A stretch of 40,000 bases of DNA, taken from the NCBI RefSeq assembly GCF_900107205.1, contig NZ_FNPC01000014.1:1-40000 (forward strand), read 5' to 3'. The notes under the pieces are model-generated. The model was not told where the DNA came from, made no database searches, and saw nothing but the letters and a program-made list of their open reading frames with translations. Source of the stretch: Halopenitus persicus (GTDB lineage: Archaea > Halobacteriota > Halobacteria > Halobacteriales > Haloferacaceae). A program made the position numbers and the translations under genes. Below, piece after piece: positions 9,250 through 35,390 of this stretch. Each line of letters starts with the position of its first letter. The first letter of the stretch is position 1.

Positions 9250-9939
9250 TTACGAGAACTCCGGCCGTTCAGCATACGTGATCGGATCGCGTGACCCAGC
9301 ATTCCGGAACGCCTCAAGCCGGAACGCACACGCGTCACACGTCCCGCACGCTGGCTCGTCATCCCGGTAACACGACCACGTCATCTCGTACGGCACGCCG
9401 AGTTCTAACCCCCGCTCCGCGATCTTCGTTTTCGACCACTCGACGAACGGGGCTTTCAACTCGATCGCTGTCTCCGGTTTGGTGCCGACATCAATCACGT
9501 TCTGGAAGGCGTCGAAGAACGCCGGGCGGCAGTCAGGGTAGCCCGAGAAATCCTCGGAATGAGCGCCGATAAACAGCGCCTCCGAATCAGTCGCTTCCGC
9601 GTACGACGTCGCCATCGACAACAGATTCGCGTTCCGGAACGGGACGTACGATGACGGGATTTCGTCACTCTCCAAATCTGCATCAGCCACGTCCATCTCC
9701 TCGTCTGTCAGGCTCGACGCGCCGATTTGGGAGAGATGCCCGGTTTCGATATGGAGGAAGTCAGCCGCATCAACCTCTTCAGCGAGCGCTTTCGCGCACT
9801 CGTACTCCTTGTCTTCGGTACGCTGTCCGTACGACGTGTGCAGGAAGTACGGCTCGTAGCCCTGCTCCATCGCCTCGTACACCGCCGTCGCACTATCCAT
9901 CCCGCCGGACACCAGAATCACCGCACTTGTGTTGCTCAT
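9250..9939 (-). CDS. queC: 7-cyano-7-deazaguanine (preQ0) synthase
   Basis: PP-loop SGGMDS, VPFRNANLL, and the zinc motif C-x..C-x-x-C-x-x-C (WSCYRDDEPACGTCDACAFR). Confidence 0.95.
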   Translation of the reverse strand: MSNTSAVILVSGGMDSATAVYEAMEQGYEPYFLHTSYGQRTEDKEYECAKALAEEVDAADFLHIETGHLSQIGASSLTDEEMDVADADLESDEIPSSYVPFRNANLLSMATSYAEATDSEALFIGAHSEDFSGYPDCRPAFFDAFQNVIDVGTKPETAIELKAPFVEWSKTKIAERGLELGVPYEMTWSCYRDDEPACGTCDACAFRLEAFRNAGSRDPITYAERPEFS

Positions 9940-10037: not shown

Positions 10038-10814
10038 TCATGTGCCCGGCGCGTCGTTCCACAGGTCAACGTGGAGTCGCGGCGTGTACCGGAAACCAGA
10101 CTCCATCGCTAACTCTGCCACTTCGCTGCGCGTCCCATCGAGTTGCTCCCGCGTCATTCCTTCCGGCATCAACAACACGTCATCGTCCGCCACGGTCGTC
10201 GCCGTTGCCGCCCGCACCTGGTCAACCAGATCCGTGATCTCCGGCAGATCCGACTCATCTGTCACGACGAACTTCAACTGCGTCTCGTACGCGTCGACCA
10301 TCCGGGGCAGCGCGTCCATATCGATCCGGTTCTGTTCGTGTTGCTCTTCGAATTCGCCGTCGCCTTTCGGGTCCCGTTCCGGCGTCGGCGTACTACTCGC
10401 CAGTTTCGGGCTGATACTCGCCAGATCGATCGGGGCATCCCGGTAGATCGTCCCGTTCGTCTCCACCGTCGTATGATACCCTTCGGCGGCCAGTCGTTCG
10501 AGGAGTTCGACTGACTCCTCGTGGATGAGTGGCTCCCCGCCCGTGAGTACGACGTGGGTGGCCTGCTCGTGGGACTGGACTTCCTCGATGATCGAGTCGA
10601 CGTCACGCCACGCCCCGGTCGGCTCCCACGACGTATGGTACGAATCACAGAACCAACACCGCAGGTTACACCCAGCGGTCCGCACAAACACGGAGGGGAC
10701 GCCAGCACGCGTTCCCTCACCCTGCAACGAGTAGAACACCTCGTTGATCGGGAGCCCCTCACCAGCCGCGTCACCGTCCGTTACAGGTTCCTCTGCATCA
10801 CTTGCCACCGGCAT
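10038..10814 (-). CDS. queE: 7-carboxy-7-deazaguanine synthase (radical SAM)
   Basis: FYSLQGEG...FVRTAGCNLRCWFCDS is the radical-SAM CxxxCxxC cluster in the QueE context. Its start overlaps the queD stop by 1 nt (TGATG). Confidence 0.93.
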   Translation of the reverse strand: MPVASDAEEPVTDGDAAGEGLPINEVFYSLQGEGTRAGVPSVFVRTAGCNLRCWFCDSYHTSWEPTGAWRDVDSIIEEVQSHEQATHVVLTGGEPLIHEESVELLERLAAEGYHTTVETNGTIYRDAPIDLASISPKLASSTPTPERDPKGDGEFEEQHEQNRIDMDALPRMVDAYETQLKFVVTDESDLPEITDLVDQVRAATATTVADDDVLLMPEGMTREQLDGTRSEVAELAMESGFRYTPRLHVDLWNDAPGT

Positions 10815-11275
10815 CAGTAGGTCGCACAGAGCTCGCCGGTTTCACTCACTGACACCGACACATCCGAGACAGTGTCTGGGAACTCGTCGAGCATCCGTTG
10901 TTCAAGCAAGACGCTCATCACCTCCGCCGTCGGCGGGTGGTCCAACACGACGAGTGCCTCGCCGTCGCCGGCCGCCTCGAACGCCTCCACAAGCGGGTCA
11001 CCCGCTTCGACGAGGAACCGGTGATCCCACGCGTCAATGACGTCCGTGACATCGCCTTTGTCGACGACCCACCCCTCTTCGGTGAGTTCACCAGTCACTT
11101 CGACAGCGATCTCGTAGTTGTGACCGTGTGGCCGCGAGCACTTCCCGTCGTGATGCAGAATTCGATGGCCCGAGCTAATTCGGATGGGGTTGTCCGCTCC
11201 GATTTGGAGTGTACGTTGGCCTGCTTCCTGAAGCATATCTGCTTCGGATTCTCCTCTTGATATACCCCGGGACAT
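10814..11275 (-). CDS. queD: 6-carboxy-5,6,7,8-tetrahydropterin synthase
   Basis: SSGHRILHHDGKCSRPHGHNYEIAVEV is the PTPS/QueD Cys-His-His motif. The ATG at 11275 is preferred because a TTTATATA box lies about 21 nt upstream, suggesting a leaderless transcript. Confidence 0.9.
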   Translation of the reverse strand: MSRGISRGESEADMLQEAGQRTLQIGADNPIRISSGHRILHHDGKCSRPHGHNYEIAVEVTGELTEEGWVVDKGDVTDVIDAWDHRFLVEAGDPLVEAFEAAGDGEALVVLDHPPTAEVMSVLLEQRMLDEFPDTVSDVSVSVSETGELCATY

Positions 11276-11296
11276 ACTCGAAGAATACCCAGGGAA

Positions 11297-11304
11297 TATA
11301 TAAA
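11297..11304 (-). promoter_or_regulatory. putative archaeal TATA box of the queD-queE operon
   Basis: TTTATATA on the minus strand ends 21 nt before the ATG at 11275. This is the typical spacing for haloarchaeal leaderless mRNAs. Confidence 0.4.
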
Positions 11305-11455
11305 TATTGAGTTTCGATACTCCATCGATGGAACAGCAGCACCACTCACGATCGTCTCTCCGCCGACTCTCTCGTTGGCCATCGGTATCCACCACGGCCG
11401 GGCCGCAAGATAGCACCGCACGCAGCTGTATGGTCATAGCCGGTGGTGACCGCTA

Positions 11456-12115
11456 ATGGAGACCGAGGATACTCGCGCAATCTTTACTGCTGTGTTCGCC
11501 GGCTCAATCGTCCTCGCAAACGTCCTCGCAGCGAAACTCACGTGGATCGAACTCCCCGGGCTCGGCGGTGTTGCCGTCCCCGCTGGGTTTGTTGCGTTCG
11601 GCGTCGCGTACCTCGCCTCTGACTTGCTCGTCGAGTACCACGGGAAAGAGTACGCTGCGACCGTGGTCAACGGCACCGTCGTCACGCTCGTCATCGCGTA
11701 TGCCCTCGTGTTCCTCGCCATTTGGATGCCATCCGCCCCCTTCTACGGTGGGCAAGACGCGTTCGTCTCGACGCTTGGCGGCTCGGCATCGATCATCCTC
11801 GCCTCCGTCGTCGCGCTCGCGTTCGCCCAACATCTCGACGTCCGACTCTTCGCCAATCTCAAAAGCCGCACTGCTGGCCGTCACCGATGGCTCCGAAACT
11901 GCGGATCCACTGCAATTAGTCAAGGCGTAGACACCGTCGTGTTCATCACGCTCGGCTTCGCCATCTTCCCCGCACTCGGCCTTGGTGGGAACCCAACGTG
12001 GGGCTGGGCGCTCGTATCGATCATCGCCGGACAGTACATCGTGAAACTCCTAGTCACGCTGATCGACACGCTCCCGTTCTACGCCGTCACAGAACTCGTG
12101 GAACGACCGGCTTAG
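11456..12115 (+). CDS. yhhQ: queuosine-precursor (preQ0/preQ1) transporter, YhhQ/DUF165 (VUT) family
   Basis: Six TM helices. IVLANVLAAK, FGVAYLASDLLVEYHGK and RWLRNCGSTAISQGVDTVVFI match the YhhQ family pattern. It is divergent from queD. Confidence 0.85.
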   Translation: METEDTRAIFTAVFAGSIVLANVLAAKLTWIELPGLGGVAVPAGFVAFGVAYLASDLLVEYHGKEYAATVVNGTVVTLVIAYALVFLAIWMPSAPFYGGQDAFVSTLGGSASIILASVVALAFAQHLDVRLFANLKSRTAGRHRWLRNCGSTAISQGVDTVVFITLGFAIFPALGLGGNPTWGWALVSIIAGQYIVKLLVTLIDTLPFYAVTELVERPA

Positions 12116-12357
12116 ATACGATATGTACTGAATGAAGACCAATCACCGATGCTGAATCGGAGCATAATATCGAATTCAGTGTTCGACGTGGTAGACGGTG
12201 AAAAATAGATAAATGAACTCGAAACTACAGGCTGGTTAAATAACAGATTAGTATTGTCGAGATAGATTTATTTCTACTCTCGTTGACGGAATACGATCTC
12301 AGATATTCTAGTCGGGAAAAGATATAAGTCGCAGCTGAGCTTATCGCAGCTCGTTAT

Positions 12358-13392
12358 ATGCTATACAGACGAGGAACATTATCAACACCACACGGGAAAT
12401 TAGAGACACCTGTTCTCTTCCCAGTCCGTAACATCGGGAAGCGATCGAGCGATAACACCCCAGAGTACACGGATGAGATCCCTGACCTTTCGACTGCGAT
12501 GGTTAATGCTCGGTCGATACGTCAGCGAGAACCACAATGGGATAGAATACAGGAGGGCCAGACTCTGCGCGATGAGATGGGGGTACCCCAGTCAACGATT
12601 GTTTTCGCCGATAGTGGCGGGTTTGACTTTCGATCTGAAGAACTAGACACTACCCCAAAGAAATCACTCGAAACACAGCAGGCAATTGATGCAGATATTC
12701 TTGGTACAGTCGACGTTCCACTCTCACGCGAAAACAGGGAGCGTGAGAATGGCCGGCGGGTTGAAGAGAACATTCAACGGGCCCTTGCAGCGAGTGATTC
12801 GCATAATGGCGACGGCTTACTTTTCGCTAGCGTGCACGGATATGACCCTGAGACAATACGGAATGGGATTCGGTATCTTGAGAAAAATGGTGAATTCGAC
12901 GGATACGCGCTCGGTAGTCTTGTTCCTATCAGGACCGACTATGAGAAGGTCACAAAACTGATATTAGCTGCAAGGCGAGCAACTGACAAGCACCTCCATA
13001 CGTACGGATTGGGTGGCCTGGTGTACCAACCATTACTGCTCTACTGCGGAGTAGACAGTTTCGACTCAAGTGCGTTTATCCGAAGTGCTGGTAATCGGAA
13101 CTACCTGATCCCTGGGTTCGGAGGTGAAGAACTTCGACATATCGAGGATCTTGAATACCTTCCTTGTGCTTGTCCAGTCTGCAAAGACCGTACCCTCGAC
13201 GACGTCCGCGAGGATCGTGATGCCCTCGTGAAGCACAACTTATGGGCACTCACACTCGAACTTCGTCGCTTCCGATATATGGTGGAAGCAGGCGAGGACG
13301 TTGAATCATACCTCGATCTTCGCTTCCGTGGCAACGAGGTTACCGCCAGGGCCTACAAACTAGCGAAACAGCAAGTCAGGAGGCTCGTATGA
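12358..13392 (+). CDS. short tRNA-guanine-transglycosylase-superfamily protein lacking a PUA/C-terminal domain (DpdA-like candidate DNA transglycosylase)
   Basis: TGT motifs appear in order: TPVLFPV, FADSGGFDF (12610-12627), LHTYGLGG, GVDSFDSS (13048-13068), and the zinc site CACPVC...H (13165-13236). The protein is only 344 aa. Its stop overlaps the next start (ATGA at 13389-13392). Confidence 0.85.
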   Translation: MLYRRGTLSTPHGKLETPVLFPVRNIGKRSSDNTPEYTDEIPDLSTAMVNARSIRQREPQWDRIQEGQTLRDEMGVPQSTIVFADSGGFDFRSEELDTTPKKSLETQQAIDADILGTVDVPLSRENRERENGRRVEENIQRALAASDSHNGDGLLFASVHGYDPETIRNGIRYLEKNGEFDGYALGSLVPIRTDYEKVTKLILAARRATDKHLHTYGLGGLVYQPLLLYCGVDSFDSSAFIRSAGNRNYLIPGFGGEELRHIEDLEYLPCACPVCKDRTLDDVREDRDALVKHNLWALTLELRRFRYMVEAGEDVESYLDLRFRGNEVTARAYKLAKQQVRRLV

Positions 13393-14282
13393 GTGACGAA
13401 CGCCCCACCGTTCGACCAGTTAACCTCGGTCGACTGGTCGAACTAACCCACTTGTGTCGAAACGACGCGCAGTCGACGGATGACATCGTTGATGCACTCG
13501 ACGTGAGTAAACGGCGTGCACGAGAGACCATCCTCGAATCGACGCGAATCAGTCTCGTTGAAGAAATATCTAACAAGGAAACCTACTCGACAACGACCGT
13601 CGGTGAGCGCTTTATCGATGCCGTTGAATCGAGCGATTGGGAGAAAGTGAACTCGGTTTTGAAAACACACAGTCCACACTACGGCGAATTTCTCAGTCTA
13701 TTCGAAGATGGCAGCACCGTCGAACCGGACGCAGCGCTCGAACTACTTGAAAACCAAGCCGAGTTCACCCCTTACGAGTATAACGAAACATCGTTGGACG
13801 TCATCGGGGCCTGGGCGCAACGCCTCGGCGCTATCCAGAGAAATGCGTTCGATGGTACCTTCTACGCAGTCAAAAAACGCGATGTGCCGCCAAACTTCCC
13901 GTACGCGTTGCTGTCCGTTGCTGACAGTCTTGAGGAAAGTGCTGGTGTGAATCTGAAGAAACGGTATCTCTCGATCCCGGAACTTCGTGAACATACCTGT
14001 GAGTGTCTCAGTTGTGACCGTGCTACGTTCGATGAAGGCCTGCGGACGCTCGCACAACAAAACATCGGTCGGATAGAACTTTCCGGAGCACCCATCGACA
14101 CCGGCGCGAAGGAAGCACGATACGGACTCAAAACGATCGAACTAGCCGACGAGGACGGCGAACTCGTCTCAACCGATCAGTCTTCAGAGCAAGTGATGCG
14201 TGGTGTCGAGCAGCTCGGTAAACAATACTATTACCTCGCGGTGTACGACCGTGAACTCCAATTCAACAATAATGACAACTGA
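13389..14282 (+). CDS. hypothetical protein with an N-terminal winged-helix-like domain
   Basis: LVELTHLCRNDAQSTDDIVDALDVSKRRARETILESTRISLVEE resembles a wHTH. It overlaps both neighbouring genes. Confidence 0.6.
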   Translation: MSDERPTVRPVNLGRLVELTHLCRNDAQSTDDIVDALDVSKRRARETILESTRISLVEEISNKETYSTTTVGERFIDAVESSDWEKVNSVLKTHSPHYGEFLSLFEDGSTVEPDAALELLENQAEFTPYEYNETSLDVIGAWAQRLGAIQRNAFDGTFYAVKKRDVPPNFPYALLSVADSLEESAGVNLKKRYLSIPELREHTCECLSCDRATFDEGLRTLAQQNIGRIELSGAPIDTGAKEARYGLKTIELADEDGELVSTDQSSEQVMRGVEQLGKQYYYLAVYDRELQFNNNDN

Positions 14283-15429
14283 CAAATTCGAAATTACAGA
14301 CGAACAGCGCGACTACTCATCCCTGGGTCTCAACGAAAACCCGTTCCCCTACAGTCCAGTACCCTCAGACAACCCAGAGGTTTACTGTGGACAAGATCAC
14401 GTAGCGAACGCAGTAAGCAATACCGTGTCATCGGTACTCAGTACCGGGAAATCGAAGCACCTCGTCATAACCGGAAAGTACGGAAACGGGAAATCCCATA
14501 CCCTCAAATACGCACGCTCGCTCGTCCGTGACCGCGAAGACGTTCTCGTTGGATACGTCGCTCAGCCCGGAGAAGGGTTCCTCGACGTCTATCACGAGTT
14601 TATGTACGACCTCGGCTTCGATCGTGTGCAGGAACTCGCATATGAATTCCTTGCTCACGTCGCCCGAGAGCACACCGAAACGAATCCGATGGGGGCACTA
14701 TCGATGAAGTCGCTGCTCGATGAGGGAGAAACTCTGCTCTCAGAACTTGTCCCAAAGGCCATCCAACAACTGAGTGATGTCACGAAGTTCGCTGATTTCG
14801 CTCGGGCGATCGTACATATGGTGTACGAGGACACGAACCTCTACGCGTGGCAGTGGCTCACCGCGGAGGGCATTCGGTACGAACAGCGCAAGGAGATGGA
14901 GATTCACAGCGCGCTTGACGACGACACGATGGGTGTACGGGCGTTTACTGCGCTCAAGAATATGCTCCTCGAACTCGGATACACCGGCGTGTTCGTCTTC
15001 GTGGATGAGTTCGAGAGCGTGGCGCGGCTCTCCCCGAAGAACGAACAGGCGACGCTCAACAGTCTACGGCATTTGATGGATCAGAACAGTGCCGGACTCA
15101 GTATGATGTTCGGATGTGCTCCGGAAGTCTGGCAGGACATTATGAGCGAGTACCACGCGTTCTCCGAACGGATCGGTCGAGAAGTCTCCCTCCGACCGAT
15201 GACAGAGGACCACTTGAAAGACCTCGTCGATTCTTATCTTGACCTTGCGTCCGGTGAGGGGGTTTCAGTGTCCGATATTTTCGAGGAAGACAGCCTCCAA
15301 TTGATTTTGCAGAGTTCACAAGGGAACGTACGACAGGCACTTTCTATCTGCAGCTACACAATTGATGATGCAGCCAGACGAGGGCGGGCAAACATCGACG
15401 CAGAAATCATTCAAGAAGCCATCTCCTAA
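14272..15429 (+). CDS. P-loop NTPase (AAA/Orc1-like) with an N-terminal NPF motif
   Basis: The ATG at 14272 overlaps the upstream stop by 11 nt. LNENPFPY; Walker A GKYGNGKSH (14473-14496); Walker B VFVFVDEFE (14989-15015); C-terminal helical lid. Confidence 0.8.
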   Translation: MTTDKFEITDEQRDYSSLGLNENPFPYSPVPSDNPEVYCGQDHVANAVSNTVSSVLSTGKSKHLVITGKYGNGKSHTLKYARSLVRDREDVLVGYVAQPGEGFLDVYHEFMYDLGFDRVQELAYEFLAHVAREHTETNPMGALSMKSLLDEGETLLSELVPKAIQQLSDVTKFADFARAIVHMVYEDTNLYAWQWLTAEGIRYEQRKEMEIHSALDDDTMGVRAFTALKNMLLELGYTGVFVFVDEFESVARLSPKNEQATLNSLRHLMDQNSAGLSMMFGCAPEVWQDIMSEYHAFSERIGREVSLRPMTEDHLKDLVDSYLDLASGEGVSVSDIFEEDSLQLILQSSQGNVRQALSICSYTIDDAARRGRANIDAEIIQEAIS

Positions 15430-16211: not shown

Positions 16212-17009
16212 GTGGGAGGATTCCAACTCGTGACCTTACAGTACTCACGATTCTACCAACTGTACGCAGCAGTCCAGTTGGTTGCAAATGACGAAGCGTA
16301 CACTAAAGAGTCGCTGCGTGAAGCTCTGGTCGCACGGAAAGATCTTGATGCGAACCTCCCAGACTCGGAGGAAGGCGCCAAAGATGTCATCGAAGAGTTG
16401 GGAAATGCCCTACTTATTCAGGAAGCTGATGGTCATATCAAGTTAACATCGGAGGCTGAACTCCCTCAGAATTCGAGGTTGCTATTCTCCGGAAAGGCAG
16501 TAAGTGAGTCGATTTATGCCGCCGACGACACCGAAGCGTATGATCGAATGTTAACGAACCTCACTTATGCCCATCCGGAACTTCTCAACATCGCAAAGGA
16601 GGTCTATCGAAACAAGCCGCTAGAAAAATTTGAGATAAAGCGGGCGATAGCCGGGAACGATCCATTCGGAAACAAACTCAATGATTTCACTATCGATATA
16701 GGTGTAGAACTCTTATCAGATGCGGACGTGATACGGAAGAGTGACCGCGGATACACCGATGGCCGGTGTCCGATTACCCTACTCGCACATCTCATCTATG
16801 AAGAGTACGAAGCAATCGCTTCCGGTGATGAGAATGGCGTCTCCGAGCAAGAACTCTTTGAACGTATCGAACTGATGTACGGTATCGAGAAGTCGACATT
16901 CGAGAACCATCTGTCCCGACTCCAGCGTCACGGGTTCGTCACACCCGGGAGCTACGGCGAAATCACCTTCGACAAGGACGCATTCAACGCAGCTCGTATC
17001 CATGAGTAA
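16212..17009 (+). CDS. hypothetical protein, first gene of the five-gene operon (wHTH-like ends)
   Basis: GTG start (an alternative GTG is at 16230). The C-terminus SEQELFERIELMYGIEKSTFENHLSRLQRHGFVTP resembles a wHTH. Its stop (17007-17009) overlaps the ATG at 17002 of the next gene. Confidence 0.6.
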   Translation: MGGFQLVTLQYSRFYQLYAAVQLVANDEAYTKESLREALVARKDLDANLPDSEEGAKDVIEELGNALLIQEADGHIKLTSEAELPQNSRLLFSGKAVSESIYAADDTEAYDRMLTNLTYAHPELLNIAKEVYRNKPLEKFEIKRAIAGNDPFGNKLNDFTIDIGVELLSDADVIRKSDRGYTDGRCPITLLAHLIYEEYEAIASGDENGVSEQELFERIELMYGIEKSTFENHLSRLQRHGFVTPGSYGEITFDKDAFNAARIHE

Positions 17010-20000
17010 GTACGACAAGTTCGACCTCAACACGAATCCCTTCGAGCGAACGATTGCGAACGAAGAAACCGCTCGAACGTACCGTATTGTCGGCCGCGAC
17101 GACCAGGAAGCCCGACTTGAAGAGTTCGTCCAAGATGCTCTCCAGCATCCAGAGAATATGAGTCGGTCGCTGGTGTTTGGAGACTACGGTACTGGGAAGA
17201 GTCACCATCTCATCCAGCTCCGGGACGACCTGAAGGATGGGATCGAAATCGATGGTGCAACCCATCACGCAATCGGGGTCTACGTTGGCAACCTTGGGTT
17301 GAGTATCAGGTCGCTTTACATAGAGATCATCGAAGAGGTACTCGATTTCGCTCCGGAACTGGAGGATTTCGTAGAAGGACTGAAACCAGTGGAGCCGGAG
17401 TCAAGCGTCGAAGAGACGTTCGAGGTCGAGCAATTGATGAAGAACGTCGCTACGAACCTCCGAAAATTGTCCCAGGAGGCGACGACGGAGTATGATTACA
17501 ACAGTATCTTTATTTTTATCGACGAGGCTGAGGACATAGTCAATGCTGAGGAATCGAAAGTAAAAGACTTCGTCAGGTCGTTCCTCCACGTTGTTAACGA
17601 ACTGAGCGCAGCTCGAATCCACATCCTACTGGGTTTCTCACAGAAGGCGAAAACTCGCATTACGGGGTACGACGAGGAGGGAAGCCAACCGCTCGGGAAC
17701 GCACTCTTCCAGCGCTTCGCACAACGACAGGCGATTCAACTCGGTAACCTTCGAAAAGGGGATGTGGAAGAGATGTTGATCGATCGTCTTGATCAGCACC
17801 GCTCTACTAACAAGGGGAAACTCTACCCCATCGTCGAAGAGACGATCGGAGTAATAAAGTCTCTCACCAACGGGCATCCCCGAGAAATATTGTCAATATA
17901 CGCGTCTGCTCTCCAGTATGCCGCCGAGGCAGACCTGGACGCGGTCAACGGTGACGCCGTATTCTATGCGATTCGCGGGTTCGACTCGCTGGTCCGAGAT
18001 GAACAGATCCTTTCGACGACGTCCCTGAGCAATTTCGAGCAGGGTCTTCGGGACTTTGATACGGACGCGGCGAACGACTTCGAGAACCTTCGGGGTCGTC
18101 TTATTGGGGAAGATGCCCGTGTCCCGCAGGATGGGTTCACGACCGACCCGGAGGAGTTACTCCAGCCGATTTCGATAAGTAGCGATACGGATATCCGGGT
18201 TCTCGAACGTATCAACGAGGACGGGCGGTACTTCTATCAACTCCACGAAGAGGCGAAGGACTTCCTCTTTGGCTCGACCGGTGGCGAAGGAACTCTCATC
18301 GCCGACCTCGACATCCATGCGACGACTGCGCCAATAAAGTACCAATCATCTATGTCCCGTGGATTTGCACTCGCGTTACGGGAGGCCGACTACGCGACGA
18401 CGTTCCCCGATCCGGTCGGGGTCGAATACGAGGACTATCAACTCGAATCGTGGCTCGTCGAGTACCACGTTGGCGAGGGCTACCGGAGGCCCACGGTAGC
18501 ACTCGCGGTTTACAATGGACCGGAACTTCCGAAGGAAATCGCCGAGCTCTTCATCAAAACCATCGAGCAGAAGGGAGCTTCCTTCGGAATTCTACTCAAG
18601 CAGGGTCAGGGTAAATCGGCTGAACTGAACAAGTATCTGAGTGAGTTGGAGGGACTGAAGAGCGACTACTACAGGGAACGGGTCCTCCAGATCGACTTGA
18701 CGGAGAAGCAGCGCGAGGAGTCTGCGTATGGTAAACTTCTAGGTCTGGGCAAATCTGACGTGGAATTCGACGACGACGCGTTCGAAGTCGACGAACTCGT
18801 GGAGTCACTCGGCGTGAACGACCGGCTCGTCGAGGCGATTCAGGAGTCGGTACTCCCGTATCCGGGATCGATCGGACGACGCGTCATTGAGGAGATGGAG
18901 CGCAACCAGCAGAAGGACTTCACGATAACAGGCCTCCGCGAACAACTCGACCTCCAGCAGTACGACCTCCGCAGCGAGACGATGATCGGCTATCTGAAGC
19001 AGGGCCTGGTCTCAAAGGACGGTCAGAACTGGACGTACCCGGATGTCGAGGACGATCGGCCACCATGGTACCACGTCTATGCGATTCTGAAGGACAAGGA
19101 CCCGCTCACGCGCGACGAACTCCAGTTCGAAGTCGAACAGCGCTTCGTTCTCGGTTGCAACGAAGGCGAGGAAGCCGAGATGCTTCAGTGGTATCTCAAC
19201 CGACTCCGCATCGCTGGCTACGTCGAACAGGAGAAAGGTCCTGCCGGAGAGGGGATGAAATACGATGTCGTGAGTGTCGCAGATCAGGTCGACGAGACGG
19301 TTTTACAGGCGAGAGACCGATTGGAAGATGCGAGAGAGACCTACGAGGAAGCGCAGGAACTGAACATCACCGAACTGAACGAGTACAACAACCAGCTTGA
19401 CGATGTCGAAACAACGATTACCGACGTCGATGGGTCACTTAACCCGGATTCGGGCGATCTTTCTCGATTGAAAGATGCTCTCGGCAAAGCCGAGACGGTT
19501 CGTGACGAACTCCAAGATGAAATCGACGCAGGTCACGAGCAGTTGGAGGGCGAAGTAGAGAACCTCGCCATCCAGGCGGATGAACTCGAAGAGAGATTAG
19601 AGGAGATCAAGCAGGAGGAGGTCCACGTTGACGACTTCGATACCTGGCACGAAGAACTCTCCACACTGCTAGAGGATCTCCGAGAGCTCGTCGAGGACGA
19701 TGAGTATTCACTACTGGCCGACCGTGTGGAAGAGGTTGGAGAACGCCTCGATGAAATTGACGAGGAACTAGAGGAGATAGCCGGTGCGAAACAGCAGTGT
19801 GTCAAGGCGTATCAACACGCCCAGGATTTGAAAGAGGAAGCAGCCGATGCTATTGCGGACATCAGTACGGATAACGACCAGCAGGAGGTACTTCAGCAGG
19901 AACTCAACGGTTTCGAGGAGGTGTTAGAAGCTTACGATAAGTATTACAGCGCAACACAGTACAAAGAGGCCCTGACGTACCTCAACGATCACCTACCAGA

Positions 20001-20373
20001 ACTTGAGGACACCGCGGACCGTGCCCAGAAGATCTCTAGTCGACAGAACCGCTTGAACAACAACCTAGATAGTATCGAGTCCGACGTCAAGAAAGAGGGC
20101 GACGACGACCTGCTCGAACAGTTCCGTGACGCCCGTGAGAACGTGGCTCGCGGCCAGTTCGCTGAAGCCGAACAACAACTCGGGGACATCCAGGACAGAC
20201 TGGAGGGCCCAACACCCGAGGAACGGTTCAGAAATGCCGTCGAGGAACACGACGGGCGGTTATCGAAGGTCGTCGATGCGACCGATTTCAGTTGGGATGA
20301 GACGTTCAAATGGGCGTACCAGCTGTACAATAACGGTGAATTCAACGACATCCACCTGGTGAACGACAAATGA
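17002..20373 (+). CDS. large P-loop ATPase with an NPF N-terminus and a long acidic coiled-coil C-terminal region
   Basis: LNTNPFE; Walker A GDYGTGKSH (17179-17202); Walker B IFIFIDEAED (17512-17526). About 300 aa are E/D/L/Q-rich heptad-like sequence (roughly 19280-20180). 1123 aa. Confidence 0.85.
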   Translation: MSKYDKFDLNTNPFERTIANEETARTYRIVGRDDQEARLEEFVQDALQHPENMSRSLVFGDYGTGKSHHLIQLRDDLKDGIEIDGATHHAIGVYVGNLGLSIRSLYIEIIEEVLDFAPELEDFVEGLKPVEPESSVEETFEVEQLMKNVATNLRKLSQEATTEYDYNSIFIFIDEAEDIVNAEESKVKDFVRSFLHVVNELSAARIHILLGFSQKAKTRITGYDEEGSQPLGNALFQRFAQRQAIQLGNLRKGDVEEMLIDRLDQHRSTNKGKLYPIVEETIGVIKSLTNGHPREILSIYASALQYAAEADLDAVNGDAVFYAIRGFDSLVRDEQILSTTSLSNFEQGLRDFDTDAANDFENLRGRLIGEDARVPQDGFTTDPEELLQPISISSDTDIRVLERINEDGRYFYQLHEEAKDFLFGSTGGEGTLIADLDIHATTAPIKYQSSMSRGFALALREADYATTFPDPVGVEYEDYQLESWLVEYHVGEGYRRPTVALAVYNGPELPKEIAELFIKTIEQKGASFGILLKQGQGKSAELNKYLSELEGLKSDYYRERVLQIDLTEKQREESAYGKLLGLGKSDVEFDDDAFEVDELVESLGVNDRLVEAIQESVLPYPGSIGRRVIEEMERNQQKDFTITGLREQLDLQQYDLRSETMIGYLKQGLVSKDGQNWTYPDVEDDRPPWYHVYAILKDKDPLTRDELQFEVEQRFVLGCNEGEEAEMLQWYLNRLRIAGYVEQEKGPAGEGMKYDVVSVADQVDETVLQARDRLEDARETYEEAQELNITELNEYNNQLDDVETTITDVDGSLNPDSGDLSRLKDALGKAETVRDELQDEIDAGHEQLEGEVENLAIQADELEERLEEIKQEEVHVDDFDTWHEELSTLLEDLRELVEDDEYSLLADRVEEVGERLDEIDEELEEIAGAKQQCVKAYQHAQDLKEEAADAIADISTDNDQQEVLQQELNGFEEVLEAYDKYYSATQYKEALTYLNDHLPELEDTADRAQKISSRQNRLNNNLDSIESDVKKEGDDDLLEQFRDARENVARGQFAEAEQQLGDIQDRLEGPTPEERFRNAVEEHDGRLSKVVDATDFSWDETFKWAYQLYNNGEFNDIHLVNDK

Positions 20374-23105
20374 GCCGAACACAGATGGACGGCCGGGACG
20401 ACCTCAAGACCCTCCAGGCCGTCTGGAACCAACTCCCCCAAGAGTTCAAGACGGAGTTGCAGCAGCGGCTGCTTAGGGCAATCGACGACCGCTGCAAGCG
20501 ACAGATCAACTCCGGCAACTACGACGCCACCGTGGCGCTCGGGGAACTGTACGAGGACTTCGTCGGTACCATAGCCGATGACGACCGGTTCTCTGACGCG
20601 GTCCCGCGCAAGGTCGGAGAGGACCACGCGAGCCACCTCGTCTTCCAGCGTCTCGTTGACGAACTCGAAGGGCGGAACACGATTTTGTACGTCTACGACC
20701 GCCAACGTGTCCGGAGCCGTGTCGCAGAAGTTACGCGGTACTTCGCGTTGCTACGGCAGCGATTCGTCGGTGAGGAGTACGACTTCACTCCGAGCCTAAC
20801 GAAGATGGTGAAGATGGACATTCAGTCCCGGGAGAAGCCGAAGTGGGGAGAGGACGGGAAGCGTATCAACTCCATCGTCCGCGACATCTACCAAGAGGTC
20901 AAAATCTCCGAACCGGCCGCTGAGTTCCAAGAGGCATTCGACTCCACCGGCGACTGGCAGGATGCCATAGAAACGTCACTGACGCTGGTCAGAGAGCTCT
21001 GCCACGAACTGGGGATGAAAGGACTCGCCAAATACCAGGGCCGTGCCTTCGAGCGGCTCTACCTCCAGAGCGTCACCGACGACAACGACGGAACAGCTCG
21101 CGTTGTCACCGCTAGTACTGGGGGCGGCAAGACAGAAGCGTTCCTGTTTCCCCTACTCACATATGCCTTGACCGCGTCACAGGCGAATCTGAACGGAGCG
21201 CGAGCCCTGCTGGCATATCCACGTACCGACCTCTGTGACAACCAATTCGAGCGAGTGGTTCACTATCTCTACACCATCGGCGAACTCATCGAGGACGACG
21301 AGTCATCACCATTCAACCAGTTCCCACTCTCGGTGAATCTGCAACACAGCAGCAGCGGGAAAGTCGAGATAGACTGTCCGGAGTGTGGCGGCCGGATGTC
21401 GGCGGAGGAGGACTTCGAGTGCTCTGAAAACCCAGATCACGTCATTGACTACGTCTCCACCGGAAACCGGGCTCAGGCTGATATCTTCATCACAACGCCG
21501 GACACTCTCCATCGACGACTTATGGACCCGTACGGGCAGAACCAGTTCTGGAAGCGAGGCTACCCGCCGAAGTTCGTCGTCCTCGATGAGGTCCACGTCT
21601 ACACCGACCAGTACGGGATGCACGTTGCTAACCTGATGCGTCGGCTGAAGGCGACGATGAGGGCAGTCGCAGAAGAACAGGATCCCGTTCTCGTGGCATC
21701 GAGTGCGACGATTTCGAACGCCGAAGACTTCACCAAGCGAATTTTCGACGCTCCCCGTGCAGAGCAGATCAAACCGTACTCGAAGAAAGACATCGAGGAG
21801 ATGGACGAGAGCCGTAGCGAGGGCCTCGAACCGGAACTTGAGGAGATTGGCTGGGAGTACCTCGTCTTCGTCAAATCGACGGAGCCCAGAACCGTCCAGA
21901 TTCCACAGGGCGACGACGTTTACAAGCCTCGCTCCGAGTGGGAGGAGTTCGACGAGACGAACGTGACCAACCTTTCGACGATGATCCAGGTCGCGTTTGC
22001 GTTCTACCACACGATCCTGAAGGAGCGACCCGAAGATGACGACACGAAGGACAAGATCCTCGGCTTCGTCGATTCGATCGACTCCGTCAAACGCCTAGGC
22101 GACTACATCCACGACGCCGAGGGAGCTGGAGGAAACGATGACGCCGGGCTCTACTCACTCAGGAAGCCAGACGCCTTCCTCCCTGAAACAGAACAAACGA
22201 ACCCCGACTGTCCGAAAGACCTGTTCAGAGGGTCGGCAGCCGACCACGAGACCGCAGTATGTGAACCACTCCCTCCGAATCCAGAACTGAACCCCTGTCC
22301 AGTGTACGAGGCCGGTGAGTGCTGGTGGACGCTGCAGGACGACTTTCTCGAATCGATGGATGTCTATCTGCATAAGAGCGGTCGGACTGAAACTCCCGAC
22401 GGAAGCCGTGTCAACGACGACGAGTGGGATATGATGGTCACGACCAGCGCGTTAGAGGTTGGGTTCGACCATCCGAGTATCATCGGGACATTCCAGTACC
22501 GGGCGCCAATGAACATCCCCGGTTTCGTCCAGCGGAAAGGTCGTGGCGGACGGGACCCGGGCGATCAACCGGTTTCGGTCGTCGTCCTCGGGACGTTCCC
22601 GGAGGATTCGTTCTACTTCCACCACGAAGAGCTCTTGAGCAATCCGAGCGACGAATACCTGAAGATTTCACTTGACGAGGAGAACGAGTTCGTTAGGACC
22701 CAGCACGTCGTCTCAGCGATCTTCGATTACGTCAACGTTCGGCATCAGGACGTCTCGGACGAGATCTACAGGCGATTGGAGATACCGGAGTTGATTCGCA
22801 TCCTTGAGGACGACCGTGACGAGATAGAGAGGTGGCTAGATGAAGCGTTCCAATCGGCGGACCCCGACTTCCTTGAGGGGGTCCTAGACGACCTGACTGA
22901 TTACGTCGGGCTGACCGAGATGGCGCTGGCTCCGCACGACCAGTTGGAGGAGGCCGGTGGATTCGAGAAGTTCTGGGAAGCGCTTCGGATCGAATCCGGT
23001 ACGAAGTCGAAGCAGATTGAACGAGAGAAAGAACAGTTGCAGAAGCTCCTGACGCAGTTCGAGATACTTCAGGGTGTGAATGCGGCCGGAGGTACTGACG
23101 AATGA
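20370..23105 (+). CDS. DEAD/DEAH-box (DEVH) SF2 helicase, YprA/MrfA/DrmA-like
   Basis: Motif I ASTGGGKTEAF (21111-21134); motif II VVLDEVHVY (DEVH at 21585-21596); motif III SSATISN; motif V TTSALEVGFD; motif VI QRKGRGGR (22530-22553), followed by VVVLGTFPEDSFYFHH. A zinc-ribbon insert CPECG...C..NPDH lies at 21375-21440. ATGA overlaps at both ends. Confidence 0.9.
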   Translation: MSRTQMDGRDDLKTLQAVWNQLPQEFKTELQQRLLRAIDDRCKRQINSGNYDATVALGELYEDFVGTIADDDRFSDAVPRKVGEDHASHLVFQRLVDELEGRNTILYVYDRQRVRSRVAEVTRYFALLRQRFVGEEYDFTPSLTKMVKMDIQSREKPKWGEDGKRINSIVRDIYQEVKISEPAAEFQEAFDSTGDWQDAIETSLTLVRELCHELGMKGLAKYQGRAFERLYLQSVTDDNDGTARVVTASTGGGKTEAFLFPLLTYALTASQANLNGARALLAYPRTDLCDNQFERVVHYLYTIGELIEDDESSPFNQFPLSVNLQHSSSGKVEIDCPECGGRMSAEEDFECSENPDHVIDYVSTGNRAQADIFITTPDTLHRRLMDPYGQNQFWKRGYPPKFVVLDEVHVYTDQYGMHVANLMRRLKATMRAVAEEQDPVLVASSATISNAEDFTKRIFDAPRAEQIKPYSKKDIEEMDESRSEGLEPELEEIGWEYLVFVKSTEPRTVQIPQGDDVYKPRSEWEEFDETNVTNLSTMIQVAFAFYHTILKERPEDDDTKDKILGFVDSIDSVKRLGDYIHDAEGAGGNDDAGLYSLRKPDAFLPETEQTNPDCPKDLFRGSAADHETAVCEPLPPNPELNPCPVYEAGECWWTLQDDFLESMDVYLHKSGRTETPDGSRVNDDEWDMMVTTSALEVGFDHPSIIGTFQYRAPMNIPGFVQRKGRGGRDPGDQPVSVVVLGTFPEDSFYFHHEELLSNPSDEYLKISLDEENEFVRTQHVVSAIFDYVNVRHQDVSDEIYRRLEIPELIRILEDDRDEIERWLDEAFQSADPDFLEGVLDDLTDYVGLTEMALAPHDQLEEAGGFEKFWEALRIESGTKSKQIEREKEQLQKLLTQFEILQGVNAAGGTDE

Positions 23106-25207
23106 GTGGGGACGAGAAAAAACGGCATCAGCGGAAACTGGGTGACAGAATCAAATCCATCGTTCGGTTCTACGACGATCTCGCAGAGCGAACCAGATAC
23201 GGGCCTGTTCAGCCCTACTGCCACGTTCCAGACCTGTTCGAGGTGGACCCCGAAGCGGAACGCCCCCTCACAGTTCCTGGGACGTTCATCTCCGAGCAGG
23301 TCGGCGGCAACATCCCCGTCACAGCAGACGAGGGGGGGCTGCTCGACTCGGAGCCCCTCGACCTGATGCTCTCGTACTACCTCCCTGGTGGTTACAAACG
23401 GCGATGGGACTTCGAGATGTGGACCGGAGACTTCGCTGCCTCGCAACGCGACGGCTACGTGGACGTCACGTCTGGCTTCGAGTTCCGCCAGGACTACCCT
23501 CTCGAAGAGGTGCTCTCTTTGACGGACTCGGAGGAGTACACACCGTTCGGGTACGAAACGGACGAGGTCGGTCTCTATGTACCCGAGGAGATCTACGTAA
23601 AGCAGCCAGCGTCCCCGCGTTACTTCTTCGACACCGTTCACAAGCACGTACTGAACTACAATCCCGACACCGTTCCAGACGAAGACGTTATCGACCTCGG
23701 AATGAGCGACCCGAGCTCGAACTTTCTCTGGTTCAAACACCTTCACCGACTCGGTGGAGACATCGAAAGATTCGACATCGAGGAGGAGGGCGAACTGTTC
23801 AGTCGGATCGTCTTCTCCGACGAGTCCGTCTTCCTGAAGTGTTACTACGCGACGGTCCTCACTTTGTATCGGCAGGACCAGCGGACATTCTCCGATGTCG
23901 TCCGGTACTTCAATGACCGTAGCGGTCGGGTCGCCTTCGTGACGAGTGAGGAGAAGAGCCAGGTGCTCCTCTTCGACATTCCTCGTGAATGGGTCGAAAA
24001 ATCGGTCAGTAGGCAACTGGACTCGAACGAGTCACTGCGGCGTGACCTCGGGTTCGCACAACTGTATCGGGAGCTCTGGGACGACCTCTTCTTCACCGAC
24101 CGGACGATACAGAACGTCTACGGCGTCGATCCAGTCTTCCGATCCCTTCAGGCTGCGGACTACTGGATTCGGACCTCAGACGAGAGTCCCAATTCTGTGT
24201 TCGAGGCATCGGTCAACGAGATTTGCGGAGTTCTCGACAAGGTAATTCCGGAATCAGGTCCGAGCAGACTTCGGCTGATGGGATACGACAGCGACCAGCG
24301 CGAGGATCTGAAGGATCTTTTCCGGGACAACTCGGAAGAACTACGCGAGGTTCTGGAGAACTGTGCGTCGATAGAAAACCAGCGGACGTTCACCGAGCAG
24401 GTCCTCGTTCACTCCCTGCAGAACGCCGTCGCAGGATGGGCCGTGGCGGCGGGACTTGGCGGAAGCGACTTCGAAACCTGGTACGACGCGAACTACCAGA
24501 GCAAGGACATCGACGTCGTACAGTTAGCGCTCTACGACACGATTCAGGGCGGCGCCGGGACGAGCAAAGAGGTCTTCAAACGGCTCAAGGATGGATCACT
24601 CGACATCTCCGGCCCGCTCTCTAACCAGTGTTCCTGCCACATCTCGCTCGCGGAGGACCTCGTGCTCTCGCTGCTCGCCGAGCGCGACGCGTCCGTTCTC
24701 TACGACATCTACACGCAGGGCGACGGCGAAGACGACGAGATTCAGCGGGATCTCTTCGACCTCGCAGTCGCTACCGCGTCAGATATCGACAGAGCCAAGC
24801 TCGTTGACGAGGAGGAGGTCATCACCGTATTCAATCGTCGGATTGCCTCGCTGTACGAGACGAAAGAACTTGCACGCTTCTACGGCGCGGTCGCCCGGGC
24901 GTACCACCGCATAGCGTCCGAACTGAATCGGACACCGACTGCGATGGACGTTGTCCTCGGTCTCGAAGAAGAGACGTTTATCGATTCCCGGGTGAGAAAC
25001 ACCTACGAACGGTTCGCCAACCGTGGCTCCCAGCGTAGGGACCTGAGCGAACTTGCCGACCGCGTCGAGGAGATCACAAAGCAGTGCATCAGAGCCTGTC
25101 CGGACTGTCTCGAACGACAGGACTCTATGTACGCGTATCGCTACCAGAACCAGATGCTCGACAAACGCCTCTTGCAGGCGTCGCTTTCCGAGGTGATTGA
25201 AGTATGA
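23102..25207 (+). CDS. DUF1998 (MrfA Zn-binding, DrmB-like) domain protein
   Basis: The C-terminal third contains HSLQNAV...LALYDTIQGGAGTS (24530-24559) and Cys pairs C510-x-C512 and CIRACPDCL (25085-25108), followed by NQMLDKRLL. This matches the DUF1998 pattern. The N-terminal ~470 aa are unassigned. Confidence 0.7.
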   Translation: MSGDEKKRHQRKLGDRIKSIVRFYDDLAERTRYGPVQPYCHVPDLFEVDPEAERPLTVPGTFISEQVGGNIPVTADEGGLLDSEPLDLMLSYYLPGGYKRRWDFEMWTGDFAASQRDGYVDVTSGFEFRQDYPLEEVLSLTDSEEYTPFGYETDEVGLYVPEEIYVKQPASPRYFFDTVHKHVLNYNPDTVPDEDVIDLGMSDPSSNFLWFKHLHRLGGDIERFDIEEEGELFSRIVFSDESVFLKCYYATVLTLYRQDQRTFSDVVRYFNDRSGRVAFVTSEEKSQVLLFDIPREWVEKSVSRQLDSNESLRRDLGFAQLYRELWDDLFFTDRTIQNVYGVDPVFRSLQAADYWIRTSDESPNSVFEASVNEICGVLDKVIPESGPSRLRLMGYDSDQREDLKDLFRDNSEELREVLENCASIENQRTFTEQVLVHSLQNAVAGWAVAAGLGGSDFETWYDANYQSKDIDVVQLALYDTIQGGAGTSKEVFKRLKDGSLDISGPLSNQCSCHISLAEDLVLSLLAERDASVLYDIYTQGDGEDDEIQRDLFDLAVATASDIDRAKLVDEEEVITVFNRRIASLYETKELARFYGAVARAYHRIASELNRTPTAMDVVLGLEEETFIDSRVRNTYERFANRGSQRRDLSELADRVEEITKQCIRACPDCLERQDSMYAYRYQNQMLDKRLLQASLSEVIEV

Positions 25208-28200: not shown

Positions 28201-28413
28201 CCGGTGGTCACTCCCGACGCCCTCGAAGGAGACATCGTAGAAGATGTAATCGTGAGCCTCACAGTGGCCAACGACGAAGAAATCGTCCGGCCACCGGTGA
28301 ATAACATCGAGACACTGTACACCTTGCTAACGGCTGGTGAGTCCGTCACTGTCGTTGGGGACGAAGCGACGCTCAAGCGAAATACACTAACCGAACGCCT
28401 CACCGACTTGTAA
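25204..28413 (+). CDS. multidomain protein: N-terminal OB-like region, Cas4/RecB-type PD-(D/E)XK Fe-S nuclease, and a degenerate Upf1/Dna2-like SF1 helicase core
   Basis: Nuclease motifs: ECPRIY, GSIAHRALE, GRVDLMIDGSPLDLKT, QLRLYLFGV, and C380-x2-C383...C405 (about 25606-26433). The helicase C-terminal signature is VVTPFEAQAVSI...VVTPDALEGDIVEDVIVSL...VTVVGDEATL (28120-28410). The Walker A slot reads VLVLGARLPEL (27184-27216) and the Walker B slot FDAIVILGAE (27442-27471). Confidence 0.8.
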   Translation: MIVSLYDVVHNAEKYAITDLSKEEQAFKDKELTVRCEVTGIPSTGTAGGEKTLYPVDDPTTQLQDEVLLSFWHEDSNWGRLEETDNAVQTFVDTSPLQRGEELLVRAIPVHREGKWYLNVTSLFVRNPDITIGKSEMRSANECPRIYDLRYRKNVFNPNRYDISKGAVKGSIAHRALERAIDDSEFAANFESGWTDDDVEELMDAVVDESFSMEMTLCRLAWVSPNDIKEFAENSVLNLLQDAGFTKLVRGTETLETERTIADSYGLNGRVDLMIDGSPLDLKTNFFLEDGMKQRHRFQLRLYLFGVLLENLDQGMNLGKVLDELPPGVIIYPNLQDESEPVYERVELEHHHIEEIMQLRNQAATLRDSFAVPTTYDRDCSGCYFKDEDTIGSGAGAGQRLPSACKFHCQSERRWACHETNDEGEVKTECPLYHECDQRLEYRNPSVTDHYNQLRSALQDEKRARKDAGKTMARMTDEVLENAGMQLSGLSFEEELSTRRMLYSGESVRLFEPGTPVRIVPEDEDTHIVATYCGTQEGGYVFEFDGSPPTDFKRFNVTYRATRAVESTSLPRRLLSELDYAQRIGIDPRLRESGEISPSPERIAPDAVEKIADYLDNRQVFVNLPARVSRSEKLTQLVREVTQSPLQSLDGDWVPDDDRRVLVLGARLPELDSVADHLVDGDDIIRVDGFGDAKNAYGPTSNSHRLYEAIRDSNVIVSSAQYALQEGVFHSMTSGDESARPHSSRFFDAIVILGAETLTEPEYVFLRDLADRTVAVGEVNRESPEMVSEEAREKGLAESYYVNAYKRFSTISSESAESIFIEGEASTPVAEFFKPLDIELDGIGGSASFHHVSGEEQRAEEYMTIERRIHTVGETDEPRDILLKALDRGDALYVASQLDDLNALDATDLRVGQTYTFGEARFRVENNDVAPDRDMGHVVTVDINLSQTPYFTRRLILNPLEAQEVANLTAEQEPSLVVTPFEAQAVSISTELEDRGIDVPVVTPDALEGDIVEDVIVSLTVANDEEIVRPPVNNIETLYTLLTAGESVTVVGDEATLKRNTLTERLTDL

Positions 28414-34889: not shown

Positions 34890-35390
34890 ATGGAAAACTC
34901 AAATCCCCCGAATCAAGAGGTTGTCGGTGACCAGTTAATTGAAGATATATCAAAAATAAAATATATTGCGCTCGGGGAAGGGCCGGCGGCGTGTCAGGTC
35001 TGCGACCGCGAGCTCCGGGAAGGCGACGAGCTGACCGCGTATGCCTTCCGGGCGGCTGGCAACCCCATTTTTGAGATCGGATACGTGATGTGCGGGGCGG
35101 ACGAGCACGCACACCCGACGGAGTTTATGCGCGGCGTCCACGAGCTCGTGGTGACTGGTCGGGTTGGGCTGTGTTCTGATGTGGCGGTGCAGTCGTCGTG
35201 GTTGGTTCTGCTTGCGCCGTCGGTGGTGGTGGTGAGTGTGGCGTCGTCGGACTCGGCTTGCGTGGTGGGTGATGACACGACGCGCGATGCTGAGGCCCGG
35301 AGCACTACCGTCACTGAGCATCGGGGTGGTCCGAGGTCGTTGCTGTCGGTTGTCTGTGAGGATACTCGGGCTGATGGGGGTGGTTGGTGA
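34890..35390 (+). CDS. hypothetical protein, first ORF of the RAMP operon
   Basis: The only in-frame start is the ATG at 34890. Its stop overlaps the next ATG (TGATG at 35388-35392). It contains CQVCD...MCGADEH. The first ~28 codons are AT-rich and the rest is GC-rich. Confidence 0.5.
   Translation: MENSNPPNQEVVGDQLIEDISKIKYIALGEGPAACQVCDRELREGDELTAYAFRAAGNPIFEIGYVMCGADEHAHPTEFMRGVHELVVTGRVGLCSDVAVQSSWLVLLAPSVVVVSVASSDSACVVGDDTTRDAEARSTTVTEHRGGPRSLLSVVCEDTRADGGGW

Follow-up and report, generated by a model that had tools for sequence, protein, structure and literature searches.

To our knowledge, no cellular restriction-modification system other than Dpd is known to mark DNA by exchanging a base. 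In bacteria, the replacement of guanine by preQ0 in DNA, which DpdA carries out, depends on ATP hydrolysis by the ParB-like protein DpdB, and DpdC then makes dADG (PMC10164549); DpdB is present in 92% of dpdA genomes (PMC5699537). Here we analyse a 40,000-nucleotide (nt) stretch of the haloarchaeon Halopenitus persicus (contig NZ_FNPC01000014.1, positions 1 to 40,000, hereafter the window), whose gene content identifies it as carrying a Dpd-type 7-deazaguanine island, and in particular an operon of three genes within it: a TGT-like enzyme (TGT2), a winged-helix protein of 297 amino acids (p297) and an AAA+ ATPase, together called the trio. An earlier note on this DNA had read the three genes as a possible DpdA/DpdB-type insertion machinery with a different ATPase. 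The island suggests that archaea mark their cellular DNA with 7-deazaguanines, for which the only cellular precedent known to us so far is a ‘DpdA homolog’ of Haloarcula vallismortis, which is infected by HVTV-1, a virus with dPreQ1-modified DNA.

Several other described systems share parts with this locus. Viral DpdA1-4 are stand-alone TGT-fold enzymes without a PUA domain that put 7-deazaguanines into DNA (PMC6884629, PMC10516641). In the BRC systems described in 2026, a TGT occurs in a HerA/PglZ-based setting and the authors propose an NTPase in place of DpdB; the same work places BrxD, the ATPase of type 2 BREX, in the ORC/Cdc6 clade of AAA+ proteins and notes that it has no DNA-binding domain of its own (PMC12839542). 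We found no description of the combination of TGT2, p297 and a BrxD-type ATPase in the literature, and the trio with DpdA is best classed as an undescribed variant of the Dpd-type system.

The operon and its three products

The operon and the elements in front of it are as follows.

12321-12328, + strand: TATA-like element GATATAAG, 30-37 nt 5' of the TGT2 start codon
12329-12336 and 12344-12351, + strand: direct repeat, two copies of TCGCAGCT, between the TATA-like element and the TGT2 ATG
12358-13392, + strand: TGT2, 344 aa, similar to the catalytic domain of arcTGT; active-site Asp residues and Zn site intact
13389-14282, + strand: p297, 297 aa, three tandem winged-helix domains and a tail in an AlphaFold2 (AF2) model, putative nucleic-acid-binding adaptor
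14272-15429, + strand: BrxD-type AAA+ ATPase (ORC/Cdc6 clade), 385 aa, with LNxNPF motif, Walker A and B motifs and a C-terminal lid

The genes are translationally coupled in the order TGT2-p297-ATPase (12358-15429), and the overlaps described earlier are there on the sequence: the start of p297 overlaps the stop of TGT2 in an ATGA at 13389-13392, and the ATG of the ATPase lies within the end of p297, in the 11-nt overlap ATGACAACTGA at 14272-14282. A longer, GTG-initiated version of the ATPase open reading frame (ORF) is possible from 14200. We place the start at the ATG at 14272 because the homologs of other loci align from there and not from the upstream GTG.

The operon stands behind a conserved TATA-like element. 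In an alignment of the regions upstream of the trio from 17 loci, an (A/T)TAAGT element is kept in all genera at approximately 27-30 nt 5' of the TGT2 ATG, and it is present even where the trio follows DpdA and DpdC. Judged by the established architecture of haloarchaeal promoters, this spacing suits an archaeal TATA box, and we infer that the trio probably has a separate promoter and a leaderless mRNA. The direct repeat behaves differently. The octamer TCGCAGCT has just two copies in the whole window, both strands counted, and is restricted to the Halorubrum loci L001-L004 and this window; it is therefore not a conserved feature, no general function is supported for it, and we reject it as a conserved operator. 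Thus both upstream elements that the earlier note had pointed out are present, and the TATA-like one is conserved whereas the repeat is not.

TGT2 is a member of the TGT superfamily (Pfam TGT PF01702, 1.4e-29, 103.7 bits, cutoff 26.3), and its best match over the whole catalytic TIM barrel is the tRNA enzyme arcTGT. Specifically, it matches NCBIfam TgtA TIGR00432 at 4.4e-43 with 147.3 bits, where the equivalog cutoff of 350 is not reached, and the Pyrococcus arcTGT structure (PDB 1iq8) at 1.5e-21 over residues 6-334. The residues D85, D119 and D236 align with D95, D130 and D249 of arcTGT and the Zn ligands align likewise. The motifs read earlier from the letters are present: DSGGF at aa 85-89, FDS at aa 235-237 and the CxCxxC...H signature as CACPVC at aa 270-275 with His293. 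The protein ends at aa 344, which is residue 347 of the 582-aa 1iq8 chain, just where the tRNA-binding domains C1, C2 and PUA would start, and it has none of the three. Among the matches listed, nearly all TGT2 homologs are 344 aa long, with a few up to 371, and they are 72-97% identical between genera. In the deeper alignment (A4), which reaches down to 35% identity, there is no variation at D85, S86, G87, G88, D119, D236, S237, S238, C270, C272, C275 and H293. With the catalytic Asp residues, the substrate Asp and the Zn site (CxCxxC...H) all kept over so wide a range, we conclude that selection acts on the catalysis of TGT2.

The TGT-like protein had been read as a possible DpdA of the system, and on this point the searches lead elsewhere. 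Against NCBIfam DpdA NF041059, TGT2 scores 26.2 bits where the cutoff is 200, and the window encodes a true DpdA, at 283.9 bits against the same model and with a DpdC-like partner, at 30.7-33.6 kb. We therefore reject TGT2 as the DpdA of the island; it is a second transglycosylase paralog. We also considered a viral origin for TGT2 and found no close phage relatives, the best phage tblastn match having 24% identity at E ~1e-4 and IMG/VR giving a single distant match (L030).

The ATPase is a member of the BrxC_BrxD family (Pfam PF10923, 3.8e-17, 62.8 bits, cutoff 22.2). PADLOC gives BrxD at 7e-12 and SngB at 6.6e-11, and NCBIfam BrxD NF033438 is matched at 1.9e-11 with 43.7 bits, where the equivalog cutoff of 350 is not reached. 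The NPF of the N-terminal LNxNPF motif lies at aa 23-25, and the Walker motifs are intact as had been claimed (Walker A, GKYGNGKS, aa 68-75; Walker B, FVFVDE, aa 241-246). The protein has no DNA-binding domain of its own.

For p297 there is no match in Pfam, NCBIfam, PADLOC, PHROGs or the PDB sequences. It shares 100% identity with a Halopenitus persicus protein, in line with the haloarchaeal origin of the window. An AF2 model built from 32 homologs (predicted local-distance difference test, pLDDT, 77; predicted template-modelling score, pTM, 0.72) consists of three successive winged-helix units followed by a C-terminal tail that is conserved in sequence and has low model confidence at residues 234-279. 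The only Foldseek match below 1e-3 is the three-subdomain DNA-recognition region of FokI (E 2e-4), and the next are the winged-helix arrays of RPC62 and SelB. Because the Foldseek TM-scores are low (0.31), the assignment stops at ‘tandem winged helices’, and the model supports nothing more specific. The family is narrow: a profile search gave 115 clusters at 50% identity, including non-halophile members with basic pI. The domain matches and this model bear out the earlier reading of the operon, in which a TGT-fold enzyme is encoded together with a winged-helix protein and an AAA+ ATPase of the ORC/Cdc6 clade.

Conservation of the trio and comparison with described systems

We compared 23 loci from GTDB genomes and 80 loci from hypersaline metagenomes. 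The order TGT2-p297-ATPase is kept in 23 of the 23 genome loci; among the metagenome loci p297 is adjacent in 72 of the 72 that could be assessed and the ATPase in 61 of 62. The gene order is thus conserved far beyond chance, and the conservation of the ATPase and winged-helix genes beside this TGT subfamily, on which the earlier note had staked its reading, holds up. The same order is also kept in three non-halophile contexts, with relatives at 35-50% identity.

The trio is also linked to DpdA. In 17 of the 23 genome loci it is immediately preceded, on its own strand, by DpdA and a DpdC-like gene, and in three more these two are found elsewhere in the locus. Where a metagenome locus has at least 3.1 kb of upstream DNA, DpdA is in the locus in 45 of 46 cases and directly upstream in 33 of 46. 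Looking in the reverse direction from three DpdA homologs, we found the trio directly downstream in all three. Genes for preQ0 supply are linked to the trio in most loci, and on the non-halophile contigs an enlarged DpdA, preQ0 genes, a PLD protein and a large DEAD helicase are also present where the flanks allow this to be seen. The linkage to DpdA-DpdC and preQ0 genes is therefore near-obligate.

The island is also mobile. Over 11-14 kb its nucleotide sequence is 98.2-99.6% identical among Halorubrum rubrum, Haloarcula mannanilytica, H. vallismortis and Haloparvum sedimenti (L007, L008, L009 and L011; near-identity is also seen for L005/L006 and L018/L019). Other bearers of the island include Halorubrum distributum, and the H. 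vallismortis strain is ATCC 29715. Because it is near-identical between different genera, the sequence comparison indicates that the island was recently moved by horizontal transfer.

DpdB is a ParB/DndB-like ATPase with a DGQQR motif. Searches with Pfam, PADLOC, NCBIfam, PDB sequences and AF2 models with Foldseek gave no homolog of DpdB, ParB or DndB, either in the window or in the related loci, the genomes being covered only as far as the fetched loci reach. We looked for such a protein in three places. The earlier note had suggested DpdB/ParB similarity in the 297-aa protein, and none emerged from the sequence or fold searches: neither p297 nor the trio ATPase has a Pfam, PADLOC, NCBIfam or PDB match to ParB, DndB or DpdB, the p297 model is a winged-helix array, and both are rejected as DpdB/ParB homologs. 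A ParB-like domain inside the enlarged DpdA of the window is not supported either, as that protein has no Pfam match to one, and AF2 with Foldseek returns only DpdA (PDB 7ui4), TGT and generic TIM barrels. The idea of a DpdA combined with a replacement for DpdB therefore stands in part: DpdB is absent and an AAA+ ATPase with a winged-helix protein is in place, but the idea overlooked that the island has two transglycosylases, both seemingly catalytically intact.

Compared with the bacterial Dpd system of Salmonella Montevideo (PMC10164549), the shared parts are a DpdA ortholog in which the catalytic Asp residues are kept, a putative partner of the DpdC family (DUF6884), preQ0 synthesis genes and yhhQ in linkage, neighbours resembling DpdJ, DpdH and the PLD protein DpdK, and the presence of an ATPase in the modification core. 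In the haloarchaeal loci, however, a BrxD-type AAA+ ATPase, a triple winged-helix protein and an arcTGT-like second transglycosylase are found instead of DpdB; DpdA is enlarged to ~730 aa and usually fused to DpdC, and the host is an archaeon. The comparison with arcTGT itself (TgtA, 1iq8) gives the same catalytic Asp, substrate Asp and CxCxxC...H, whereas TGT2 lacks C1, C2 and PUA, reaches 147 bits of the required 350, has His160 in place of Gln169 of arcTGT, and is patchy in distribution, mobile and encoded in an island. TGT2 resembles the viral DpdA1-4 enzymes (PMC6884629, PMC10516641) in being a stand-alone TGT-fold protein without PUA, but it is not close to them (24% identity, E ~1e-4), and the viral enzymes are not reported with a pair of winged-helix protein and BrxD-type ATPase.

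Two further systems share the ATPase type. The BRC systems with TGT/GNAT (PMC12839542) combine a TGT homolog with BREX-type ORC/Cdc6 AAA+ ATPases and have neither DpdB nor DpdC. However, BRC is defined by HerA/FtsK, PglZ, DUF6079, DUF4007 and a STAND NTPase, whereas in the present locus DpdA is retained along with a DpdC-like gene, and there is a second TGT. None of the five defining components was detected here, the Pfam and PADLOC scans for HerA/FtsK, PglZ, DUF6079 and DUF4007 covering the scanned ORFs of the window, and since HerA, PglZ and DUF4007 were not detected we reject membership in BRC. With BrxD of type 2 BREX (Pgl) the trio ATPase shares the family PF10923 and the form of a stand-alone AAA+ protein without DNA-binding domains, but its 43.7 bits compare with a cutoff of 350 and its partners are a TGT and a winged-helix protein, not the BrxHI helicase, PglX and PglZ. 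No PglX, PglZ or PglW, as expected in a BREX type 2 context, was detected among the scanned window ORFs.

The role of the trio

We propose that, in a haloarchaeal Dpd-type 7-deazaguanine DNA modification/restriction island, the modification core has two arms and that the trio is the second, conserved one. TGT2 is an arcTGT catalytic domain that has shed the tRNA-binding C1, C2 and PUA domains and retained all catalytic and Zn-binding residues, p297 would provide nucleic-acid binding in trans through its three winged helices, and the ATPase would provide ATP-driven loading or local opening of the DNA. That the three proteins form a complex is suggested because their genes are translationally coupled and because p297 has a conserved, disordered tail (residues 233-297), the predicted element for docking. 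Such a complex would carry out an ATP-dependent, DNA-directed exchange of guanine for preQ0, in the niche that is held in bacteria by the ParB-like ATPase DpdB. It would divide the labour with the canonical DpdA::DpdC, beside which it would work and which would insert preQ0 and convert it to dADG, and the helicase and nuclease sets that vary between loci would form the restriction half. We give this reading of the trio, as an ATP-dependent, DNA-directed preQ0 insertase arm in the DpdB niche beside DpdA::DpdC, roughly an even chance of being right.

Several observations weigh against it. If the trio were a mere replacement for DpdB, a second catalytically intact TGT would be unnecessary, and if TGT2 alone inserted preQ0, DpdA would be redundant. 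The two intact transglycosylases might serve two sites or strands, TGT2 might form a heteromer with DpdA, or it might have a role in reading or restriction. Besides the low TM-scores of its Foldseek matches, p297 belongs to a fold whose arrays also bind RNA, as in SelB. Finally, p297 is evenly and fairly well conserved, with 52-60% identity between genera and no hypervariable domain, unlike a typical swappable specificity subunit; as its conservation is even along the protein, a role as a hypervariable specificity subunit is not supported.

A stronger version, which we put forward tentatively, is that the three proteins of the trio make up a DNA guanine transglycosylase that is driven by ATP and complete in itself, derived independently from arcTGT and adding an insertase lineage to bDpdA and DpdA1-4, so that the islands would have two writers. 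If this is true, DpdA::DpdC and the trio would mark different sites or strands, or make chemically different marks, and an ORC/Cdc6-type AAA+ protein would replace the ParB-type DpdB as the motor that opens double-stranded DNA to base exchange. A trio that is self-sufficient as a DNA insertase would also be a compact, sequence-directed base-exchange tool. The locus is a natural variant without a ParB-like DpdB and always with an ORC/Cdc6-type AAA+ protein, a triple winged-helix protein and a second intact transglycosylase, and it offers an independent route to study the ATP requirement of DpdA.

Other divisions of the same parts have to be weighed against the insertase arm. The ATPase and p297 could be a straight substitute for DpdB that serves the canonical DpdA, with TGT2 as a structural or regulatory partner of DpdA in a heteromer resembling QTRT1/QTRT2. 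DpdA and the trio are nearly always adjacent and often read in the same direction, DpdB is absent in the loci examined, and the eukaryotic TGT is a heterodimer of paralogs (PMC10164549). We nevertheless find this arrangement unlikely: even among deeply diverged relatives TGT2 keeps every catalytic and Zn-binding residue unchanged, which argues for kept catalysis, and TGT2 is in the overlapping operon with p297 and the ATPase, not with DpdA, and has its own promoter element. We attach a similarly small probability to the trio being the reading or restriction arm, which would scan foreign DNA and act on it by excising guanine or viral 7-deazaguanine, by covalent enzyme-DNA intermediates or by recruiting the helicase/nuclease block. 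TGT chemistry is reversible, which would permit excision. BrxD-type ATPases stand on the restriction side of BREX type 2, where they are proposed helicase loaders (PMC12839542), the restriction block includes, in its 1123-aa protein, a paralog of the trio ATPase, and haloviruses modify their DNA with 7-deazaguanines, including dPreQ1 (PMC6884629, PMC10516641). However, the trio has no nuclease domain, and it is constant together with DpdA-DpdC and the preQ0 genes while the nuclease and helicase sets are swapped, which is the pattern of a modification core.

The remaining alternatives dissociate the trio from the marking of DNA or from the Dpd genes. TGT2 is closest to a tRNA enzyme and winged-helix arrays bind RNA, and the trio could accordingly put preQ0 into tRNA or another RNA with p297 as the RNA adaptor, the Dpd genes being merely co-located. 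This is quite improbable, as TGT2 lacks C1, C2 and PUA and falls far short of the TgtA equivalog cutoff, it is almost obligately linked to DpdA-DpdC, and it is patchy and horizontally mobile (at least 98% nt identity between genera), hence not a housekeeping enzyme. Still less probable is an independent defence system that only shares a defence island with the Dpd genes. It is true that defence genes tend to be grouped in islands and that the trio stands behind a promoter element of its own, but the presence of DpdA in 45 of 46 assessable metagenome loci (directly upstream in 33), in the non-halophile relatives and in all reverse look-ups speaks against mere cohabitation, as does the need of a TGT enzyme for an adjacent supply of preQ0.

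The surrounding island

The other features of the island are listed below in their order along the window.

9250-9939, - strand: queC, preQ0 supply
10038-10814, - strand: queE, preQ0 supply
10814-11437, - strand: queD, preQ0 supply
11456-12115, + strand: yhhQ/Vut_1, preQ0 transporter, preQ0 supply
16212-28413, + strand: candidate restriction block (265-aa protein p265, 1123-aa AAA+/coiled-coil protein, DpdJ-like DEAD helicase, MZB (DUF1998) protein, PD-(D/E)XK/Dna2-like protein)
17002-20373, + strand: 1123-aa AAA+/coiled-coil protein with N-terminal ATPase domain
30703-31416, - strand: DpdC-like DUF6884 protein, 237 aa, adjoining DpdA; PADLOC DpdC 7e-10
31413-33617, - strand: bona fide DpdA, 734 aa; NCBIfam DpdA 1.8e-84, 283.9 bits (cutoff 200); PADLOC DpdA 1.7e-74

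With queC, queE, queD and yhhQ adjoining the operon, the setting is a Dpd-type 7-deazaguanine island beside preQ0 genes, which supports the earlier note in this respect. The window has these four genes and no folE; in many other loci queC and queE are separated by a gene for GTP cyclohydrolase I, and yhhQ is missing.

The DpdA of the window matches the DNA-guanine transglycosylase structure 7ui4 at 1.7e-40, with the equivalents of Asp95, Asp130 and Asp256 conserved, and the top Foldseek match of its AF2 model is again 7ui4 (E 2.4e-12). It has an enlarged helical insertion and, at approximately residues 593-715, an additional alpha/beta domain that is conserved and C-terminal. DUF6884 is the DpdC family (10.1101/2025.02.24.639861); the DpdC-like protein of the window matches Pfam DUF6884 at 8e-6 with 26.4 bits, below the cutoff of 30. 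Its gene overlaps that of DpdA by 4 nt, and in most other loci the two are one fused protein of ~966 aa; fused DpdA-DUF6884 homologs are annotated PF21818. At a locus of Natronobacterium texcoconense (L113), which has a phage-type integrase nearby, a gene annotated PF23859 ‘DpdA’ (L113 1-505) lies ~10 kb from the DpdA/trio core. The window DpdA has no match to PF23859 in the Pfam scan, and the L113 gene may be a third type of transglycosylase in the same neighbourhood.

The restriction-like neighbours differ by locus, while the five-gene core and the que genes are constant. Four kinds were seen: the DpdJ-like/MZB/PD-(D/E)XK set of the window; a DrmA-like helicase with MZB and PLD proteins; a Csa3-like regulator with DpdH-like large ATPases; and UvrD-PD-(D/E)XK. 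The DpdJ-like helicase of the window is matched by PADLOC at 7.5e-59. The N-terminal ATPase domain of the 1123-aa protein is a distant paralog of the trio ATPase (BLASTP 8e-6, collinear), with a shared LNxNPF motif and a GxGKSH Walker A, and the equivalent large ATPases of other loci give weak DpdH matches. We asked whether p265 is in turn a paralog of p297, which would make a duplicated pair of winged-helix protein and ATPase, and rejected this at an hhalign probability of 0.4%.

Some of these putative restriction blocks resemble DISARM (window 20370-28413; L013, L018, L032, L042 and L065), in that a DrmA/DpdJ-like helicase stands with an MZB protein (former DUF1998, DrmB-like) and a PD-(D/E)XK or PLD nuclease. 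Behind the block of the window, a 388-aa protein (28808-29974, - strand) has a C-terminal ‘homing endonuclease associated repeat’ (PF18780, 8e-10), and its homologs recur beside the p265/p1123 block elsewhere.

Both ends of the window carry genes outside these sets. Between 35000 and 40000 the GC content is 0.61-0.65 with a strong positive GC skew of +0.17 to +0.26. Three + strand ORFs in this region (35384-36307, 36235-37128 and 37427-38383) have no Pfam match; two of them have a glycine-rich ‘GGARNFGAG’/‘GGARNYGFG’ and one a weak Cmr3/RAMP match (PADLOC 1.3e-4). The ORF at 38380-39042 is weakly similar to DEDDh/RNase H-like exonucleases, and the region may be a divergent RAMP-containing module. 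Near the left end, a DUF7347/DUF7351 protein (1964-2851, - strand, 4.6e-39) has a weak zinc motif resembling that of Lar restriction alleviation.

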